Shown: piece by piece, positions 1 to 19,075 of the stretch
Layout: every line of letters starts with the position of its first letter
Numbering within the stretch: the first letter of the stretch is position 1
IMG/VR virus record: IMGVR_UViG_2548876941_000012
DNA from: a virus
Taxonomy: Duplodnaviria > Heunggongvirae > Uroviricota > Caudoviricetes
Length of the DNA: 32,850 bases
Reading direction: 5' to 3' (one strand)
Translations under genes and position numbers: made by a program
The notes under the pieces: model-generated
What the model was told of the DNA's origin: nothing
Seen by the model: only the letters and a program-made list of their open reading frames with translations
Database searches by the model: none

Positions 1-2043
1 ATGTTTTATTCAGCCAATGAGCTGGCCGGTCTTCCTGGTTTGCCCGGTACAGTTCAGGGGGTGCGCTGGACGCTCAATCGGATCACAGAGACGCACCCAG
101 AATGGAAGCGCAAGCGCGAAGGCACCAAAGCATTCGAGTATCACATCGACTGCCTGCCCGCTGAAGCGCAGAAAGTTTTACGTAAGCGCCTGACTCATCA
201 GGTCCTGGAAGATGCACAACTGCCCGCCGTAGTTGAGCAGAAAGCAGTTAAAAACGTCGCCGTTCGCGATGAACTGGAGGTGATGGTCAAATGCCCGGAG
301 CTGGCATTACGCGAAGTCCAGTCACTGACCGACAAGCAAAAGGCCATCGCTGATGCGCGGATATTGCTGGCTACTGAAGTGCATAAGCTGCGCGAGTATG
401 CCGGAATGACCAGGAAGGCCGCTTTAAAGCACATCGTTGATGGTGTGCGCATGGGGGCGTTACCTGACCGCATTATCGAAGCAGCGAATACTGCAAATGC
501 ACGTCAGGGAAAGCGAACCGGTGTCAGCACCGGCAGCCTGGATAGCTGGTACTCCAGCTGGGTGATGGCGCGCGGTGATGCCAATCAGTTACTGGCGTTA
601 CTGGCTCCCGGTCATCATAAGGGAACACCGTGGGAGCAGGTCTGGTGGTTGAGCGATTTCTTTATGTTCTATCGCTCATGGAAGCGCCCGACTGTTGAAT
701 ATGCGTATCGTGAGTTTTCAGCCTGGTGGCATGAAAAACACGCGAATGATGCGGGAATGCTGGCGGCACTGCCTTCAGTTCACGCAGTAAGACGGGTGTT
801 AAGCAGCGTCCCGGTGATTGTTAAAGAGCGTTTCCGCTCCACCGGTTCAGCCTGGCGTTCGCTCAATCCCTTTGTGCGGCGCGACTGGACATCATTACCG
901 GTTAATGCGGTATGGGTCGGGGATGGTCACTGTATGAAAATGACCGCGTTTAACCCCCTGACCGGCAATATTTTCCGGCCAGAAGTGACGCTGGTTATGG
1001 ATGCGGGGCAACGCTTTGTTGTGGGCTGGTCACTGTCCCTGTCGGAGAACGTGATAGCCGTTGCTGATGCGTTACGTTACGGCATGGCGCAGCACGGGAT
1101 ACCGCTGATTTATTACTCCGATAACGGGGGCGGTGAAAAAAACCGGGTGCTTGATGCCGATATTACCGGGATTCTGCCCCGGCTGGGTGTGGAACATCAC
1201 ACGGGGATACCAGGTAACCCGCAGGGGCGCGGGGTGATTGAACGGGCAAACAAAGGAATACCCAAAGACGTGGCTCTGAGTTTCCAGACGTACTGCGCAA
1301 GGGATGCAGACAAGGAAACCGTAATGATGCAGCAACGGATTATGCAGTCAGCCATTAAGGCCACCCACAAAGGGAAAGAACTGACAAAACGGCAGGTTAA
1401 GGCGAGGGATGAAATCCCCACCTTTGAGCAACTGCTGGCAGCCATAGAGCTGGAGGTCAGACGCTATAACAACCGGCCACACAGCAGCCTACCCCGCAAA
1501 GAGGATGGCGAATATTACAGCCCGGCAGCGTATCGCCGGAAACTGATAAAAGAGCAGAATGTTGAAATTGATTTCCTGTCGCCGGAAGAACTGCATGAAA
1601 TGTTCAGACCGGAAGTGACGCGCAAAACATTTCGCGGGGAAATTCAGTTATTCAACAATATTTATTACTCATATGATCTGGCCGCAGAGCACGGGAATGA
1701 AGTCAGGGTCAGTTACGATATTCATGATGCAAACAGCGTCATTGTCCGGCGGGCTGATGGCTCTTATATCTGCGATGCCATCTGGAACGGTAACAAGGTT
1801 GATGCCTTCGCTAAACCAGTTATCGAACAAAAACTGGAGAAACGCGTCAGGGGCCGCATTGCACGGGCTACGCAGAAAATCGAAGAGGCTAAACGCGAGC
1901 TTACCCCGGCTATTACGCAGAAGCCTGACTTTAATCTGGGATATGGACTGGAGCGCCCGGAGAAAAAGGAAAAAGAAGAACTTTATTTATTCGCATCTGA
2001 ACGCGAGCGCAATTTAAAGAAAAACGGCACAAACAACCGTTAA
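1..2043 (+). CDS. MuA-like DDE transposase
   Basis: 680-aa ORF. N-terminus (ANELAGLPGLPGT) resembles the end-binding domain of Mu transposase; catalytic-core-like motifs VWVGDGH and YYSDNGG; basic Lys/Arg-rich C-terminus; directly followed by a MuB-like ATPase. ORF begins at window position 1, so upstream control region is not visible. Confidence 0.9.
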   Translation: MFYSANELAGLPGLPGTVQGVRWTLNRITETHPEWKRKREGTKAFEYHIDCLPAEAQKVLRKRLTHQVLEDAQLPAVVEQKAVKNVAVRDELEVMVKCPELALREVQSLTDKQKAIADARILLATEVHKLREYAGMTRKAALKHIVDGVRMGALPDRIIEAANTANARQGKRTGVSTGSLDSWYSSWVMARGDANQLLALLAPGHHKGTPWEQVWWLSDFFMFYRSWKRPTVEYAYREFSAWWHEKHANDAGMLAALPSVHAVRRVLSSVPVIVKERFRSTGSAWRSLNPFVRRDWTSLPVNAVWVGDGHCMKMTAFNPLTGNIFRPEVTLVMDAGQRFVVGWSLSLSENVIAVADALRYGMAQHGIPLIYYSDNGGGEKNRVLDADITGILPRLGVEHHTGIPGNPQGRGVIERANKGIPKDVALSFQTYCARDADKETVMMQQRIMQSAIKATHKGKELTKRQVKARDEIPTFEQLLAAIELEVRRYNNRPHSSLPRKEDGEYYSPAAYRRKLIKEQNVEIDFLSPEELHEMFRPEVTRKTFRGEIQLFNNIYYSYDLAAEHGNEVRVSYDIHDANSVIVRRADGSYICDAIWNGNKVDAFAKPVIEQKLEKRVRGRIARATQKIEEAKRELTPAITQKPDFNLGYGLERPEKKEKEELYLFASERERNLKKNGTNNR

Positions 2044-3206: not shown

Positions 3207-3422
3207 ATGGCGGTCAAGTTAGAAGTAATTATCTACACCGATGAAAATGGCACGCTTCGTGTCAGGAGTATGGGGGCTATTGATAAAAAAGGATTTACGG
3301 ATGAAGAGGTCGGTGTAAGACAACGGTTATGGGAGGTAATGAATCAAACTCTTAATAAAGAATTTAACGGCGTTGATTTATTTTCTGTTGGCGTGGAACC
3401 CTGCGCGCATAACACACATTAA
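3207..3422 (+). CDS. hypothetical early protein
   Basis: 71-aa ORF with good SD (AGAGGAAA) upstream of ATG; somewhat AT-richer than neighbours. Confidence 0.5.
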   Translation: MAVKLEVIIYTDENGTLRVRSMGAIDKKGFTDEEVGVRQRLWEVMNQTLNKEFNGVDLFSVGVEPCAHNTH

Positions 3423-4331: not shown

Positions 4332-4503
4332 TCAGCTATATCCGCCAGGGACTCGCTTCATGCACATTGCACATCGGGCAGTGCGTGGTGGTCGGGTGGT
4401 AAAAACTGTTGCACCTGCCAGAGATTTTAAATGTGGTTGTGTGGTTGAAATTAATGTCGAGCCTTATTTCGTTAAAGTCGAAACACTGAAAGCACCGCAT
4501 TAA
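4312..4503 (+). CDS. hypothetical protein
   Basis: 63-aa ORF overlapping the upstream gene by 20 nt; last gene before an AT-rich gap containing a hairpin. Confidence 0.45.
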   Translation: MNAKRFNQLYPPGTRFMHIAHRAVRGGRVVKTVAPARDFKCGCVVEINVEPYFVKVETLKAPH

Positions 4504-4532
4504 TTTAATTTGTTTTTAATTGTTATTTAAAA

Positions 4533-4566
4533 CAGGCGTAAACCCGCAGGGGCTGGCTTACGCCTG
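4533..4566 (-). terminator. hairpin, probable terminator for the minus-strand gene 4644-4862
   Basis: 9-bp inverted repeat CAGGCGTAA / TTACGCCTG around a 16-nt loop. On the minus strand it is followed by TGTTTTAAAT; on the plus strand there is no U-tract. Confidence 0.4.
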
Positions 4567-7680: not shown

Positions 7681-7708
7681 GCAGACCAAAAAGTATTTTT
7701 TGGTCTGC
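7681..7708. promoter_or_regulatory. perfect 12-bp palindrome (GCAGACCAAAAA gtat TTTTTGGTCTGC) with adjacent TTTTGGTC repeat
   Basis: Read directly; lies in a 67-nt intergenic gap inside the early region. Stem contains its own A/T tract, so it could be a bidirectional terminator or a protein-binding site. Confidence 0.4.
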
Positions 7709-8862: not shown

Positions 8863-8890
8863 AGCCCCTGCCATGCAGGGGCTTTTTTTG
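8863..8890 (+). terminator. rho-independent terminator
   Basis: AGCCCCTGC cat GCAGGGGCT stem-loop followed by TTTTTTT. Confidence 0.8.
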
Positions 8891-8952: not shown

Positions 8953-9420
8953 ATGCAGACCTTCAGTGAAACAGATCTTCGCGATGCGCAGGCACTGCTG
9001 CCCGATTCCGTGCAGCAACTGATTAGCGTGATTGGCTTCCCCGCCCTGACCCGGTTGATTCGTTCTTTTGGTGGCGTGACGTTAAGCGGTAAAACCGGCG
9101 TACACGCCGAACGCACCGGCGGTGTCCATGCCCTGTTACATGACGTGCTCACCGAAGACGAAATCAACAAACTGATCCGCTTTCTTGGCGGTGCTCCGTT
9201 TTACATTCCCCGTTGCGATCATGCGTTACGTGCCCTGCGTAACACCCGTTTTATGGCTGATTTACAGCAGCATGTAAAAGACGGATGCTCACACCGGCAG
9301 GCGCTGGCACTGCTCTGTCCCCGTTACGGCATTTCAGACCGGTACGCATGGCAGCTGATACACCGACGACAAAAACAGACTTCGCTGAAAAGCCCCACCC
9401 AGGTGGGGCTTTTTGATTAA
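8953..9420 (+). CDS. Mor/C-family transcriptional activator
   Basis: 155 aa; LGGAPFYIPR motif and C-terminal HTH-like LCPRYGISDRYAWQLIHRR resemble Mu Mor/C proteins; position between early region and lysis genes. Confidence 0.7.
   Translation: MQTFSETDLRDAQALLPDSVQQLISVIGFPALTRLIRSFGGVTLSGKTGVHAERTGGVHALLHDVLTEDEINKLIRFLGGAPFYIPRCDHALRALRNTRFMADLQQHVKDGCSHRQALALLCPRYGISDRYAWQLIHRRQKQTSLKSPTQVGLFD
9391..9415 (+). terminator. rho-independent terminator overlapping the 3' end of the Mor/C-family gene
   Basis: AGCCCCAC ccag GTGGGGCT stem-loop followed by TTTTT, ending 3 nt before the stop codon. Confidence 0.7.
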
Positions 9421-9446: not shown

Positions 9447-9725
9447 ATGACCAACTATATGGCACTTGGCGAGTATACGGCCTACTCAGAGCAGGCCCGG
9501 GATGCTGCCGGACGTCGCTTTGCTTATATGAAAAATTTGGCCAGTCAGTTAAACCGAATGGCCGAACAACCGGATATGGTTGTTCAGGAAGAAGCGTTGC
9601 AGTGTGCCATTGCTGACATCATCGCCAGCGAAAACGAGATGCGCGCAGCGATGGAAAAGGCGAACGCCTCTGCTCCGCTTTGTAATAAACCTCTTATTAC
9701 GCCGGATTCTCTTTCCCGCTTCTGA
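9447..9725 (+). CDS. hypothetical protein
   Basis: Track ORF 9420-9725; ATG at 9447 has SD AGGAGA 6 nt upstream, giving 92 aa. Confidence 0.5.
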   Translation: MTNYMALGEYTAYSEQARDAAGRRFAYMKNLASQLNRMAEQPDMVVQEEALQCAIADIIASENEMRAAMEKANASAPLCNKPLITPDSLSRF

Positions 9726-9730
9726 TTTAT

Positions 9731-9750
9731 CACCCCGCCGCCGCGGGGTG
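9731..9750 (+). promoter_or_regulatory. GC-rich hairpin (CACCCCGC cgcc GCGGGGTG)
   Basis: Perfect 8-bp stem, 4-nt loop, no U-tract; its 3' arm overlaps the start of the dyad motif at 9748. Confidence 0.45.
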
Positions 9751-9775
9751 CTGAACTCCCCCAGCAGTACCCACC
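9748..9775 (+). promoter_or_regulatory. candidate late-promoter activator site, copy 1 (GTGCTGAACTCCCCCAGCAGTACCCACC)
   Basis: One of three copies of a GTGCTGAAC-NCCC motif found upstream of late operons (others at 17903 and 29821); about 130 nt upstream of the lysis cassette start. Confidence 0.5.
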
Positions 9776-9907
9776 ACACCAGACCGTTTACCCTGTCCAC
9801 TCAGACCACAAGGCACCTTAAGGGATAGCGCCCTGCAAAAGGCTTTTGTGCCTTTGACAGGGTGTTATTTACGGGCCGTCAGTGGCTCAGATTTACAGGA
9901 GAAACTC

Positions 9908-16049: not shown

Positions 16050-17202
16050 CGATGTTGACCTGGGTTATGCGTACACCCTGAAGCCGGAAGAAGCGATTAA
16101 GTATTTCGAAAGCAAGGGATACGTTATCGGCTTCCGCTGGCACGATGTGAAGGACATCGCCAACGCCCGGGCGTTCACGGTGGCGGGCGTGCTGAAACTG
16201 GATGTGCTGAAGGATATTCGTGATGGCCTGACGGCCGCACTGGCTGACGGCGGGACGTTCCGGGAGTTTGCTGCACAACTGGAACCACTGCTGGAATCAA
16301 AAGGCTGGCTGGGTAAAAAGCTGATTGTGGACGAGGACACTGGCGAACTGCACGGCAGGCAGCTGACGCCGCGCCGGTTGCGCACGATATTTGATACCAA
16401 TATTCAGTCGTCCTACAACGCCGGACGCTATCAGCAGCAGATGGCGAACGTGGCCGACCGGCCTTATTTTGAGCGCGTGGCGGTGATGGACCTTCACACC
16501 CGCCCGAAACACGCCGCCCTGAACGGTTTTACCGCCCGGGCGGATGACCCGGTCTGGGAGTATTTCTACGCGCCGGACGGATACGGATGCCGCTGCCGTA
16601 TCCGGGCGCGTTCGGCGTCTGATGTGGAGAAATATGGCCTGACGGTGCAGAGCAGCGAGGGGCGACTGGTTGAGGTTGAGCAGGAATATGGCCAGCCGGG
16701 CCAGACCATCAGAACAATGGGGCTGAAGATGCCGGATGGCTCCGTATACACCGCTGACCCGGGCTTCGGTTTTAACCCCGGCAAAGTGTCATGGCAGCCG
16801 GAACTGGAAAAATACGATTACCGCAGCGCTCGCCAGTATGTCACCGGCACCCTGACCGGGCCGGATTTTGCCCGGGGGCTGGCGAACGTCAGCGAACTGG
16901 ATGCGCGCCAGCGATATCCGCTGACCATCCGTTCACCGGAACAGGTCGCCGCCACGGGCGCTGCACGGCAGACGGTAAACCTTACGGCTGACGTTATGAA
17001 GCGCCTCAGTGCAACAGACACGCCCCCGACCGCCGCCGACTATGCGCTGATGCAGCAGACCATCGAACGGGCGGAGCATGTCACGCAGGACGGTAACGCG
17101 TGGCGGTATGCGTTACAGTCGGGAGACCGCTGGTCAGTGGCGACGGTGGAGGGTGACGTGCTGACAGACTGGGTTATGCAGGACACACCGGAGGCATCAT
17201 GA
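16036..17202 (+). CDS. head morphogenesis protein (Mu F-like)
   Basis: 388 aa; overlaps the portal stop; TNIQSSYNAGRYQQQ segment recalled as typical of Mu F / SPP1 gp7-family proteins. Confidence 0.8.
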   Translation: MPTADDVDLGYAYTLKPEEAIKYFESKGYVIGFRWHDVKDIANARAFTVAGVLKLDVLKDIRDGLTAALADGGTFREFAAQLEPLLESKGWLGKKLIVDEDTGELHGRQLTPRRLRTIFDTNIQSSYNAGRYQQQMANVADRPYFERVAVMDLHTRPKHAALNGFTARADDPVWEYFYAPDGYGCRCRIRARSASDVEKYGLTVQSSEGRLVEVEQEYGQPGQTIRTMGLKMPDGSVYTADPGFGFNPGKVSWQPELEKYDYRSARQYVTGTLTGPDFARGLANVSELDARQRYPLTIRSPEQVAATGAARQTVNLTADVMKRLSATDTPPTAADYALMQQTIERAEHVTQDGNAWRYALQSGDRWSVATVEGDVLTDWVMQDTPEAS

Positions 17203-17750
17203 GCAGCGGTGAACTGGATATTAAGATTGATTTAAGCGCGTATAACACCACGCTGGGTAAACTGATTCGTTCCGTGAAGGACCGGCGCGACCTGATGACG
17301 GCGCTTGCGGGTTCCATGCTGGATGCGGTTGAGACTAACTTTGAACAACAGGGTCGCCCGAAATGGATGGGCTGGAGTCCGGCTTATGCGAAGCGGCGCG
17401 GCCCCGGGCAAATCCTTCAGAAGTCCGGGCGACTGGCCGCCAGTATCCGCTCTGCGGTTAACAATAACGAGGCCACGGTCGGGACAAACGTCCGTTATGC
17501 CCGTATCCACAACGAAGGCGGCGAAATCCGCCATCAGGCACGGACGCAGAACCTGTATTTTAAACAGTACAAAAACGGCAGCGTCAGCACCCGCTTTGTG
17601 AAAAAGCGCAACAGTAATTTTGTGCAGAGCGCAACGGTCGGAGCGTATACGGTCAACATGCCCGCGCGCCCCTTCCTTCAGCTTGTGCAGGACGACATCG
17701 ACGAGCTGGAGAACACCGCAAACCGCTATTTTGCGCGTGTGATTGACTGA
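17199..17750 (+). CDS. virion morphogenesis protein (Mu G-like)
   Basis: 183 aa; ATGA overlap with F; position before the I protease/scaffold gene. Confidence 0.65.
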   Translation: MSSGELDIKIDLSAYNTTLGKLIRSVKDRRDLMTALAGSMLDAVETNFEQQGRPKWMGWSPAYAKRRGPGQILQKSGRLAASIRSAVNNNEATVGTNVRYARIHNEGGEIRHQARTQNLYFKQYKNGSVSTRFVKKRNSNFVQSATVGAYTVNMPARPFLQLVQDDIDELENTANRYFARVID

Positions 17751-17842
17751 ATGGCGACAAACGCGCTGTAATCGGCTGTGACAGCATAAACGCTTCATGG
17801 ATGAGGCATAACAGCACCGCATCCCATAAATGCCGTCAGAAT

Positions 17843-17867
17843 CGTTTTTAAAAGGGTTTTAAAAACG
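17843..17867. repeat. AT-rich perfect palindrome (CGTTTTTAAAA ggg TTTTAAAAACG)
   Basis: Read directly; lies in the roughly 200-nt non-coding gap between G-like and I-like genes; followed by a T-rich tract. Confidence 0.6.
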
Positions 17868-17902
17868 GTTTTATTTCCCCTTTTATCCTTTCCCGTTATG
17901 GC

Positions 17903-17930
17903 AGGGTGCTGAACACCCTCCACAGTACCC
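17903..17930 (+). promoter_or_regulatory. candidate late-promoter activator site, copy 2 (AGGGTGCTGAACACCCTCCACAGTACCC)
   Basis: Perfect dyad AGGGTG-ctgaa-CACCCT; shares GTGCTGAAC..CCC and CAGTACCC with the 9748 copy; just upstream of the I gene. Confidence 0.5.
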
Positions 17931-17950
17931 CGTGTTCCCCTTCCGTCATC

Positions 17951-19075
17951 ATGCCGCGTATGAAGATGAACATTGCGGCGTTAAGCCTCGAAATTACTAA
18001 AGCAACCCACAGCGAAATCCAGCTGTTTCCGGCAGGCGAGTTCAGTGCAGTGGATGGTCGCCCACATACCGATGAAGTCGAAAGCGGTAAATGGGTGCTG
18101 ACTGCCGAACTGGCCGCGCAGCTTGTCGCACAGGTGGCAGCCCGTACCACGCCTTTTGTCATTGATTACGAACATCAGACGCTGCGCGCCGTAAACAACG
18201 GCAAGCCCGCCCCGGCGGCGGGCTGGTTCAGCCAGGTGGAATGGCGTGAAGGCGCGGGCCTGTATGCCATCGGTGTGGAGTGGACGGAGAACGCGGCGGC
18301 CATGATTGCCGCCGGTGAGTACAAATTTATTTCCCCGGTATTTGGATACAACCGGCGCGGCGAAGTCATCGAACTGTTACACGCCGCACTGACCAATACC
18401 CCGGCGCTGGACGGTATGGACGCGGTCATGCTGGCTGCGGCCAGCCGTCTGGCGAGTCTGTCAACTGAAACGGAGACCACAACAGTGGATGAAGAACTGT
18501 TAAACGATTTGCTGTCCAGTCTGCGCTGGATGCTTAACCTCCCGGTTACCTCAACGGCGGAAGATATCAAAAACGAGCTGCAAAAGGTCGTTGACATGAT
18601 TTCGAACGGTCAGGGAACGGCGGCGGCATCCGTCAGCCTGCTGGCCCTGCTGAATCAGAAAGACGAGCAAATCGCCAGCCTGTCAGCCAGTGCCTATGAC
18701 CCGTCAAAACACATTTCCCTTGCTGCCTTCGAAGAACTCCAGGGGCGTTATGCCGCACTGGCGCAACAGTCCGGTGAGGCCGAAGCCGGGGCACTGATTC
18801 AGGCGGCGCTGTCTGACGGGCGACTGCTTCCGGCACAGGAAGGCTGGGCGAAAGATTACGCCAGCCGCGATATCAACGGCTTTAAGTCCTGGCTGGATAA
18901 CGCACCGAAACTTGTTGCGCTCAGTCAGACCCAGACCGGCGGCAAACCACCCAAAACGCCGTCGCCTGCCCCGGCGCAGATTAAAACCGGCGATGACGTC
19001 GATGTCGATATCGCCATTTGTTCAATGATGGGCGTCGATCCAGAGGATGTCGCCCGTTACGCAGGAGATGAGTAA
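17951..19075 (+). CDS. head protease/scaffold protein (Mu I-like)
   Basis: Track ORF 17906-19075 starts at a GTG inside the promoter motif; first ATG at 17951 (others at 17960 and 17966). About 374 aa; Ala-rich coiled-coil C-terminal half; position before the capsid gene. Confidence 0.75.
   Translation: MPRMKMNIAALSLEITKATHSEIQLFPAGEFSAVDGRPHTDEVESGKWVLTAELAAQLVAQVAARTTPFVIDYEHQTLRAVNNGKPAPAAGWFSQVEWREGAGLYAIGVEWTENAAAMIAAGEYKFISPVFGYNRRGEVIELLHAALTNTPALDGMDAVMLAAASRLASLSTETETTTVDEELLNDLLSSLRWMLNLPVTSTAEDIKNELQKVVDMISNGQGTAAASVSLLALLNQKDEQIASLSASAYDPSKHISLAAFEELQGRYAALAQQSGEAEAGALIQAALSDGRLLPAQEGWAKDYASRDINGFKSWLDNAPKLVALSQTQTGGKPPKTPSPAPAQIKTGDDVDVDIAICSMMGVDPEDVARYAGDE

Follow-up and report, generated by a model that had tools for sequence, protein, structure and literature searches.

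A probable counterpart of the phage Mu strong gyrase site, with paired TTAA steps, between the G and I genes of a Mu-like Escherichia coli prophage

The DNA analyzed in this work (the window, i.e., the whole stretch of 32,850 nt) is a Mu-like transposable prophage that shares 99.9% identity with one found in E. coli O127:H6 E2348/69. The E2348/69 copy splits eutC and spans approximately 2715945-2751660 (35.7 kb), and relatives of the prophage were found at varied chromosomal positions in 55 of 5426 complete E. coli genomes. The coordinate offset between the window and the E2348/69 sequence is 803 at the A gene and 802 at the G gene, so there is a 1-bp indel relative to NC_011601.1 between 2043 and 17199. 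The gene set includes a Mu-type transposase, a B-like AAA ATPase, an activator of the Mor/C family, a Mu-type portal, and counterparts of F, G, I, and T, the T-like product being the major head protein. The G-like gene closes the upstream late (lysis-head) operon as its final gene. The amino-acid identity to the respective Mu proteins is 27% for the G-like and 31% for the I-like product. The coordinates of the features discussed below are collected in Table 1.

Table 1. Genes, sequence elements, and predicted sites in and around the G–I gap (window coordinates).
Feature	Position	Strand	Remarks
Mu-type transposase	1-2043		
Mor/C-family activator gene	8953-9420		
G-like virion morphogenesis gene	17199-17750	+	Pfam PF05069 (Phage_tail_S), E 2.3e-26; PGAP in E2348/69
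Degenerate remnant of GC-rich intrinsic terminator after G	17759-17795	+	5' arm AAACGCGCTG kept; fold z -0.5
Predicted gyrase gate (G) segment	17786-17836		Likeliest 4-bp stagger ~17810-17814, within GGCATAACAGCACCGCA (17805-17821)
Alternative gate register	centre near 17790		Crude W/S scan
First phased AT patch, ATAAAT	17826-17831		22 bp before first TTAA step; anchored alignment and TpA-step spacings
Possible weak intrinsic terminator of lysis-to-G transcript	17838-17892	+	16-bp A/U-rich stem, then UUUUAUUUCCCCUUUUAU
Two more phased T/A patches	within 17838-17892		TpA steps 17872/73 and 17884/85
Perfect 11+11 palindrome	17843-17867		CGTTTTTAAAA ggg TTTTAAAAACG; two phased TTAA units
T-rich tract	17868-17892		3' of palindrome
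Predicted late promoter, motif copy 2	17896-17935	+	Dyad GGGTG-CTGAA-CACCC (17904-17918), then CAGTACCCC; counterpart of Mu PI
I-like head protease/scaffold gene	17960-19075	+	Pfam PF10123 (Mu-like_Pro), E 4.8e-98; PGAP start

The G–I gap occupies 17751-17959 (209 bp), from the end of the G stop codon at 17750 to the I start codon (ATG) at 17960. The initial annotation had described it as a sizeable AT-rich non-coding stretch of about 200 nt, and this was borne out: the GC content is 0.455-0.465 in the gap versus 0.54-0.655 in the flanks, and the gap is the largest unannotated one of the late region. The perfect palindrome with 11-bp arms and the T-rich tract behind it were likewise found exactly as described there. 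The palindrome is composed of two adjacent TTTAAA-type units, each self-complementary, with their TTAA cores at 17848-17851 and 17859-17862 and the TpA steps 11 bp apart. A shuffled window is expected to contain 0.035 perfect inverted repeats with arms of at least 11 bp, and four such loci are present in the window. Other perfect inverted repeats lie at 29369-29398, 9388-9413, 7681-7708, and 8863-8883, two of them in the early/middle region. They include a 13-bp-arm palindrome, GGTATTGCCGTTC-CGCT-GAACGGCAATACC, within the baseplate V-like gene, and AAAAGCCCCACC-CA-GGTGGGGCTTTT, with 12-bp arms, at the end of the Mor/C-like gene, which resembles a bidirectional terminator. TTAA steps at 11-bp spacing also occur in very AT-rich stretches of the window at 2040-2065 (the transposase A/B junction) and 4500-4535 (early region), and the A/B junction of Mu (3310-3350) is equally AT-rich, with several TTAA steps 11 bp apart. 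These stretches in the window and in Mu may simply be AT-rich translation-initiation regions.

Downstream of the T-rich tract, the gap contains a repeated motif whose second copy had been recognized immediately upstream of the I gene; this copy proved to be an exact match of GTGCTGAACACC at 17906, and it is one of three copies in the window. A further exact match is found at 29822 and one with a single mismatch at 9748, all on the plus strand and intergenic, and 12 matches with up to 2 mismatches were counted in the window against 3.25 expected. The full motif consists of GGGTGCTGAACACCC plus CAGTACCC. It is found again at 9746, ahead of the lysis genes, and at 29822, in the space between two baseplate genes, where the third copy precedes a gp46-like baseplate gene. 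The copies at 9700-9800, 17896-17935, and 29800-29860 read GGGTGCTGAAC(A/T)CCC(T/C)C and resemble the Mu promoters Plys, PI, and PP. Furthermore, the motif core CTGAACCCC(T/C)TC is kept upstream of I from the Enterobacterales to Pseudomonas phage DMS3. The Mor/C-family gene is located just upstream of the first motif copy. The predicted promoter of I thus has the features of an activator-dependent late promoter, namely a motif shared upstream of several late operons together with a gene of the Mor/C family.

Several searches of the gap gave no result. A nucleotide search of the gap against the phage collection returned no matches, and relatives could be reached through proteins only. The Rfam scan of 17650-18050 gave only a chance snoRNA match (E 0.62), the scan for sigma-70 promoters and terminators gave nothing on the plus strand within the gap, and RNA folding of the whole gap was not significant (z -1.3).

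The G–I gaps were extracted from 80 loci encoding relatives of the I protein, which were gathered from one-genome-per-species contigs. Most of these gaps are 190-260 bp long, and their conservation is almost entirely confined to the late-promoter motif close to I and to a bipartite TTAA element. TTAA-N7-TTAA was present in the G–I gap of 29 of the 34 related loci. Outside the gaps it occurred 7 times in 191.5 kb, i.e., 0.0073 per 200 bp, which is about 100 times rarer than in the gap. In the Enterobacterales the element has the form CG-TTTTTAAA(A)-NGGG-GTTTAAA(AA)-CG. The form in Burkholderia is CCGTTAAACCCCCGTTAAAATCG, with similar forms in Cupriavidus, Chitinimonas, and others, and the TTAA pair is kept in the same gap across Enterobacterales, Burkholderiales, and others. 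It is also present in the isolated Klebsiella phage ST405-OXA48phi1.1, and a looser form, made of GTTA repeats, is found in Pseudomonas phage DMS3. In several lineages, including Mu, there is a third TTAA 20-22 bp upstream, where the window has ATAAAT. By comparing seven E. coli versions of the prophage, the part from 17836 to 17958 is nearly invariant, with the palindrome unchanged, and the part from 17754 to 17835 contains many substitutions and 1-bp indels.

The initial annotation had made its proposal depend on conservation of the palindrome among related prophages, and here the two aspects of the palindrome part company. The TTAA pair is conserved (29 of 34 gaps) and the hairpin is not. 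As a structure, only the four pairs that come from the self-complementary TTAA units are universal among the lineages; pairing beyond these units is kept in about half of them, with no compensatory changes, and in Burkholderia the element is a direct repeat and does not fold into a hairpin. A hairpin or cruciform was therefore rejected as the feature under selection across the whole family. Since the pairing is unconserved and a U-rich tail is mostly absent, the conserved entity is a pair of phased TTAA steps in GC-rich surroundings and not a hairpin.

As regards INDEPENDENCE from neighbours, relatives in the Neisseriales/Chromobacteriaceae have inserted genes of 0.5-2 kb between the TTAA pair and the promoter. 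In phage DMS3, anti-CRISPR and aca1 genes lie between G and the GTTA-repeat element, and a Cupriavidus prophage has an insert on the G side of the TTAA pair as well. Moreover, the relatives differ in how far the TTAA pair lies from the promoter motif (about 58 to 106 bp). Because of these insertions and the variable distance, the TTAA element is regarded as a separate module that is neither the end of the G unit nor a part of the I promoter. The same observations bear on the possibility that the AT-rich phased tract is an upstream element (UP-like or a bend) of the late I promoter. The tract does lie about 50 bp upstream of the late-promoter motif in the window, within the part that is nearly invariant among the E. 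coli copies. However, the distance to the CTGAAC motif varies as given above, whole genes lie in between in the Neisseriales relatives, and the other two motif copies (9746 and 29822) have no TTAA pair nearby, so we regard this explanation as very improbable. The G–I gap is also a hotspot of insertion in its own right. The anti-CRISPR and aca1 genes of DMS3 occupy 292-1040 of its extracted locus (L094), and extra genes of 0.5-2 kb are located upstream of position 2480 in L015, L017, L019, L023, L024, L027, L035, L049, and L050. The inserted genes flank the TTAA element on either side, and none of them disrupts it.

The palindrome was also considered as a terminator of the F/G transcript in the initial annotation. 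In most relatives, a strong GC-rich terminator of the form AAACGCGCTG...CAGCGCGTTTTT follows right after G; in one of them (L005, 2300-2335) it has a folding energy of -19.2 kcal/mol (z -4.3). In the E. coli lineage this terminator is degenerate (Table 1). The palindrome stands directly 3' of the last gene of the operon, and its RNA folds with -12.3 kcal/mol (z -2.3), with UUUUAUUU...UUUUAU behind it, so that a U-tract (GGUUUUAUUUCCCCUUUUAU) directly 3' of the stem is combined with an operon-end position downstream of G. A TransTermHP-predicted terminator also covers the equivalent stretch in the Mu record (lys transcript, 17908-17953, AF083977). The likeness to this Mu terminator consists in a right-arm hairpin followed by GUUUUAU just upstream of the I promoter. 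The Mu stem is stronger (-19.8 kcal/mol) and closed by GGGAUU/GAAUCCC, whereas the stem of the window is nearly all A/U. The G+C-rich stem that is typical of an intrinsic terminator is missing, and with just two G-C pairs in 11-16 bp the palindrome was not called by the generic terminator scan. The hairpin and U-tract are not maintained by compensatory changes either: the U-tail is absent in most relatives, where the TTAA pair lies downstream of an intact classical terminator, and outside the E. coli clade hairpin and U-tail are retained together only in Mu, where their form differs. That the palindrome is an intrinsic terminator and nothing else, ending the lysis-to-G transcript before the I promoter with no role for gyrase, is improbable in view of this weak stem and missing tail, of the lineages without pairing beyond TTAA, among them the Burkholderia direct repeat, and of the genes that part the element from G in DMS3 and the Cupriavidus prophage. 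The terminator proposal is nevertheless plausible as a second, non-exclusive role, as the Mu record suggests for the same stretch, although the stem does not fit it well. Given the decay of the terminator behind G and the presence of a U-rich tail 3' of the palindrome, as in Mu, the sequence as RNA probably also serves to terminate the upstream late operon weakly before the I promoter.

The main comparison is with phage Mu, in which the strong gyrase site (SGS) was mapped with a cut at 17879/17880 in NC_000929 (Pato, Howe & Higgins, 1990). [quoted passage not shown] In cryo-EM, the AT repeats of the right arm face the GyrA C-terminal domain (PMC11626157). The order of features in the Mu GenBank records is the end of G at 17859, the gyrase cut at 17879/17880, the predicted terminator at 17908-17953, the late I promoter at 17977-18043, and the I start at 18056, and a predicted terminator followed by a late I promoter is found in equal order in the window. 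Both sites lie in the same G–I intergenic gap (196 bp in Mu, 209 bp in the window) roughly midway along a Mu-like transposable prophage. Counted from the left end, the predicted site is at 19.2 kb, or 53.7% of the 35.7-kb prophage, and the Mu cut is at 48.7%.

Alignment with the Mu SGS region, which had been suggested as a check on this positional analogy, gave a local match of window 17844-17892 to Mu 17913-17962 (49 bp). Its score was 28; dinucleotide shuffles gave 17.2 +/- 2.5, with 1 of 1000 reaching that score. The homology to the SGS thus concerns the essential right arm; the matching stretch is short, and in the core the similarity is loose. According to this alignment, the palindrome is the counterpart of Mu GATTTTTAAACCGGTATTTAACGG, at approximately +34 to +53 from the cut in the right arm, and the bases of Mu that correspond to the TTAA pair are those at +38 and +49, counted from the mapped cut. 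The phased TTTAAA-type signals of the Mu right arm, TTTTTAAA at +38 and TATTTAA at +49, align with the palindrome. Moreover, a Serratia prophage (L069) bridges both forms, with TAAACGCGCCACGG in common with Mu and GATTTAAACAGGGTTTAAAATCGGTT in common with the relatives of the window. The phased AT patches of the window have TpA steps at 17827/28, 17849/50, 17860/61, 17872/73, and 17884/85, with spacings of 22, 11, 12, and 12 bp, and are separated by GC-rich DNA. Phased bending signals of the Mu SGS type are therefore present in the putative right arm. There are also differences from Mu. The two sequences are unrelated beyond the 49-bp match, ATAAAT in the window takes the place of TTTTTTAAAA, which lies 21 bp ahead of the pair in Mu, and the spacing of the pair is 12 bp in Mu and 11 bp in the window. 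The Mu sequence GGCATAAAATCAGCCGCA, which contains the gyrase cut, resembles GGCATAACAGCACCGCA of the window, but the putative core of the window is 1 bp shorter (GC-N11-GC versus GC-N12-GC in Mu), and the Mu site was mapped by experiment whereas that of the window is predicted from its sequence.

The position of the putative cut was approached with the E. coli gyrase cleavage motif, a degenerate pattern of 130 bp whose arms show an AT/GC periodicity (Sutormin et al., 2019, PMC6379681). An arm of the consensus, ...CCTTTAAGGGGGCCTTTTGG..., is much like TTTTTAAAAGGGTTTTAAAAACGG of the window; the difference is that ordinary chromosomal sites are weak and have no functional positioning. With the first TTAA step as the alignment anchor, an AT profile was built from 25-26 non-redundant gaps and correlated with the published 133-bp consensus AT/GC pattern. 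The best-fit motif centre of the family was 38.5-39.5 bp upstream of the first TTAA step, and the known cut of Mu is mapped 38 bp upstream of the equivalent step (-38). This register was unchanged without Mu, with the Enterobacterales alone, with the non-Enterobacterales alone, and with the TTAA columns masked. The correlation is modest (r ~0.35), and the fit was reached by only 1.6% of shuffled consensus patterns. Exact-base identity and plain W/S identity to the 133-bp consensus were set aside, as both failed the Mu positive control.

Furthermore, a symmetric weight matrix was re-estimated from 416 published cleavage coordinates and the published scores (W3110, 1-200000). The coordinate check of the 416 sites gave G at +1 in 74% and C at +4 in 67%, and the cross-validated r to the published scores was 0.79. 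In the Mu control, the best position in the gap was exactly the known cut, which ranked 17th in the Mu genome. In the gap of the window, the best position was c=17809 (stagger 17810-17813), with a score of 7.3 (z 2.5). It ranks 172 of 32721 positions, which is in the top 0.5% and no outlier, and such ranks from the re-estimated matrix are approximate because its fit is inexact, probably owing to asymmetry and the max-over-strands rule. In the family mean, the top of 800 offsets was -42/-43, compared with -43 for the Mu cut; this signal is modest, with a mean z of ~1.1 versus an sd of 0.55. A crude, ad hoc W-weighted AT/GC score placed the gap first in the whole window (z 4.7), at 17790, i.e., two helical turns off, and it passed the Mu control with the Mu SGS at rank 3. 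The exact cut position is uncertain because the putative core varies, with 1-bp indels, among the E. coli copies. The best predicted family-wide register, on the other hand, repeatedly agrees with the experimentally known cut position of Mu. Of the original analogy with the Mu gyrase site, the location at the SGS position stands, and the palindrome itself would correspond to the right arm, with the predicted cut about 38 bp upstream of it. The analogy with the Mu SGS, which had been one of position, is extended by the nucleotide match to the SGS right arm, the conservation of the TTAA pair, and the gyrase-motif register at the Mu cut.

A second natural site for comparison is that of the Sakai prophage Sp18 (Oram & Pato, 2004), which a review (PMC10052514) describes as the sole foreign site able to replace the Mu SGS in promoting Mu replication. 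The Sp18-type sequence used here was taken from the E. coli O157:H7 strain Z887, not from Sakai. It also has a central G–I gap with the paired TTAA signature, GAATTTAACGGGCTTTAAAATC, and differs from the window in a TTAA spacing of 10 bp, the lack of an extended palindrome, and a gap of 176 bp. In the same Sp18-type prophage (L092), RefSeq annotates a 'tRNA-OTHER' on the minus strand at 1150-1237, between the F-like and G-like genes, which has no counterpart in the window. Several candidate sites from Mu-like prophages were reportedly cleaved by gyrase yet unable to support Mu replication, so homology is no guarantee of 'strong' behaviour.

The strictness with which TTAA is kept, rather than any AT patch, would also fit a sequence-specific protein. 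The TTAA units might be the binding site of such a protein, or of a nucleoid-associated one, from the host or the phage, that acts at the prophage centre independently of gyrase. TTAA is invariant at a fixed 11-bp spacing across distant hosts, with any GC-rich sequence as the spacer, and the Enterobacterales keep a flanking CG...CG symmetry as well. We know of no candidate protein for the TTAA pair, and the IHF consensus had no match in the gap at up to 1 mismatch. The Mu prophage domain depends on IHF, Fis, and HU besides the SGS (PMC3820752). However, the equivalent Mu bases are within the gyrase DNase I footprint, in the arm reported to be essential for gyrase action (PMC6463007), and masking of the TTAA columns leaves the AT/GC periodicity around them in agreement with the gyrase motif. 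We therefore consider a gyrase-independent binding site unlikely.

With its position, homology, conservation, and phasing as described above, the stretch 17786-17892 is probably the counterpart of the Mu SGS in this prophage and a strong gyrase site of a known kind. We infer its binding by gyrase and its biological role from Mu. We hypothesize that gyrase would bind with the gate segment centred near 17810-17814, and that the DNA to the right of the gate would wrap around one GyrA C-terminal domain, with the AT patches at approximately +16, +38, +49, +61, and +73. The two TTTAAA-type units of the palindrome, at approximately +38 and +49 from the predicted cut, would then be the most conserved signals of the right arm, and the phased AT patches in this arm could lead to tight binding and processive supercoiling. 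After induction, a supercoiled loop extruded from the site would pair the prophage ends for transpososome assembly, as has been proposed for Mu (PMC3820752; PMC10052514). Such a loop would join the ends because the site is located about halfway along the 35.7-kb prophage.

As a kind of element, the central gyrase site of Mu-like prophages is already known. The TTAA-N7-TTAA signature with its fixed register may be new: no description of it was found in the literature searched, and two primary papers on prophage SGSs lay outside that search. It is possible, and we propose it only tentatively, that two TTAA steps separated by one helical turn, on the I side of the cut and about 38 and 49 bp from it, are a general signature of the SGS in transposable phages. 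If this is true, the signature would locate strong gyrase sites from sequence alone, and it might account for the failure of some prophage sites to substitute for that of Mu. Another possible meaning of the strict TTAA conservation is that a dedicated protein, and not gyrase alone, reads the prophage centre. For the window itself the result is mostly one of annotation, namely a compact module in the order known from Mu: probable gyrase site, weak terminator, late promoter. For the family it may reach further. The Mu SGS is a standard substrate in studies of the mechanism and structure of DNA gyrase and a rare DNA site that organizes a chromosomal domain, and very few natural sequences have been used to study its 'strong' quality. 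In this family, TTAA-N7-TTAA stays in a fixed register in dozens of diverged natural variants while nearly all of the rest of the gap changes, and this conservation leads to a concrete hypothesis for the minimal determinant of the right arm. The TTAA pair would also be a simple annotation handle for the central site of transposable phages, including the gap of Pseudomonas phages in which anti-CRISPR genes are found.
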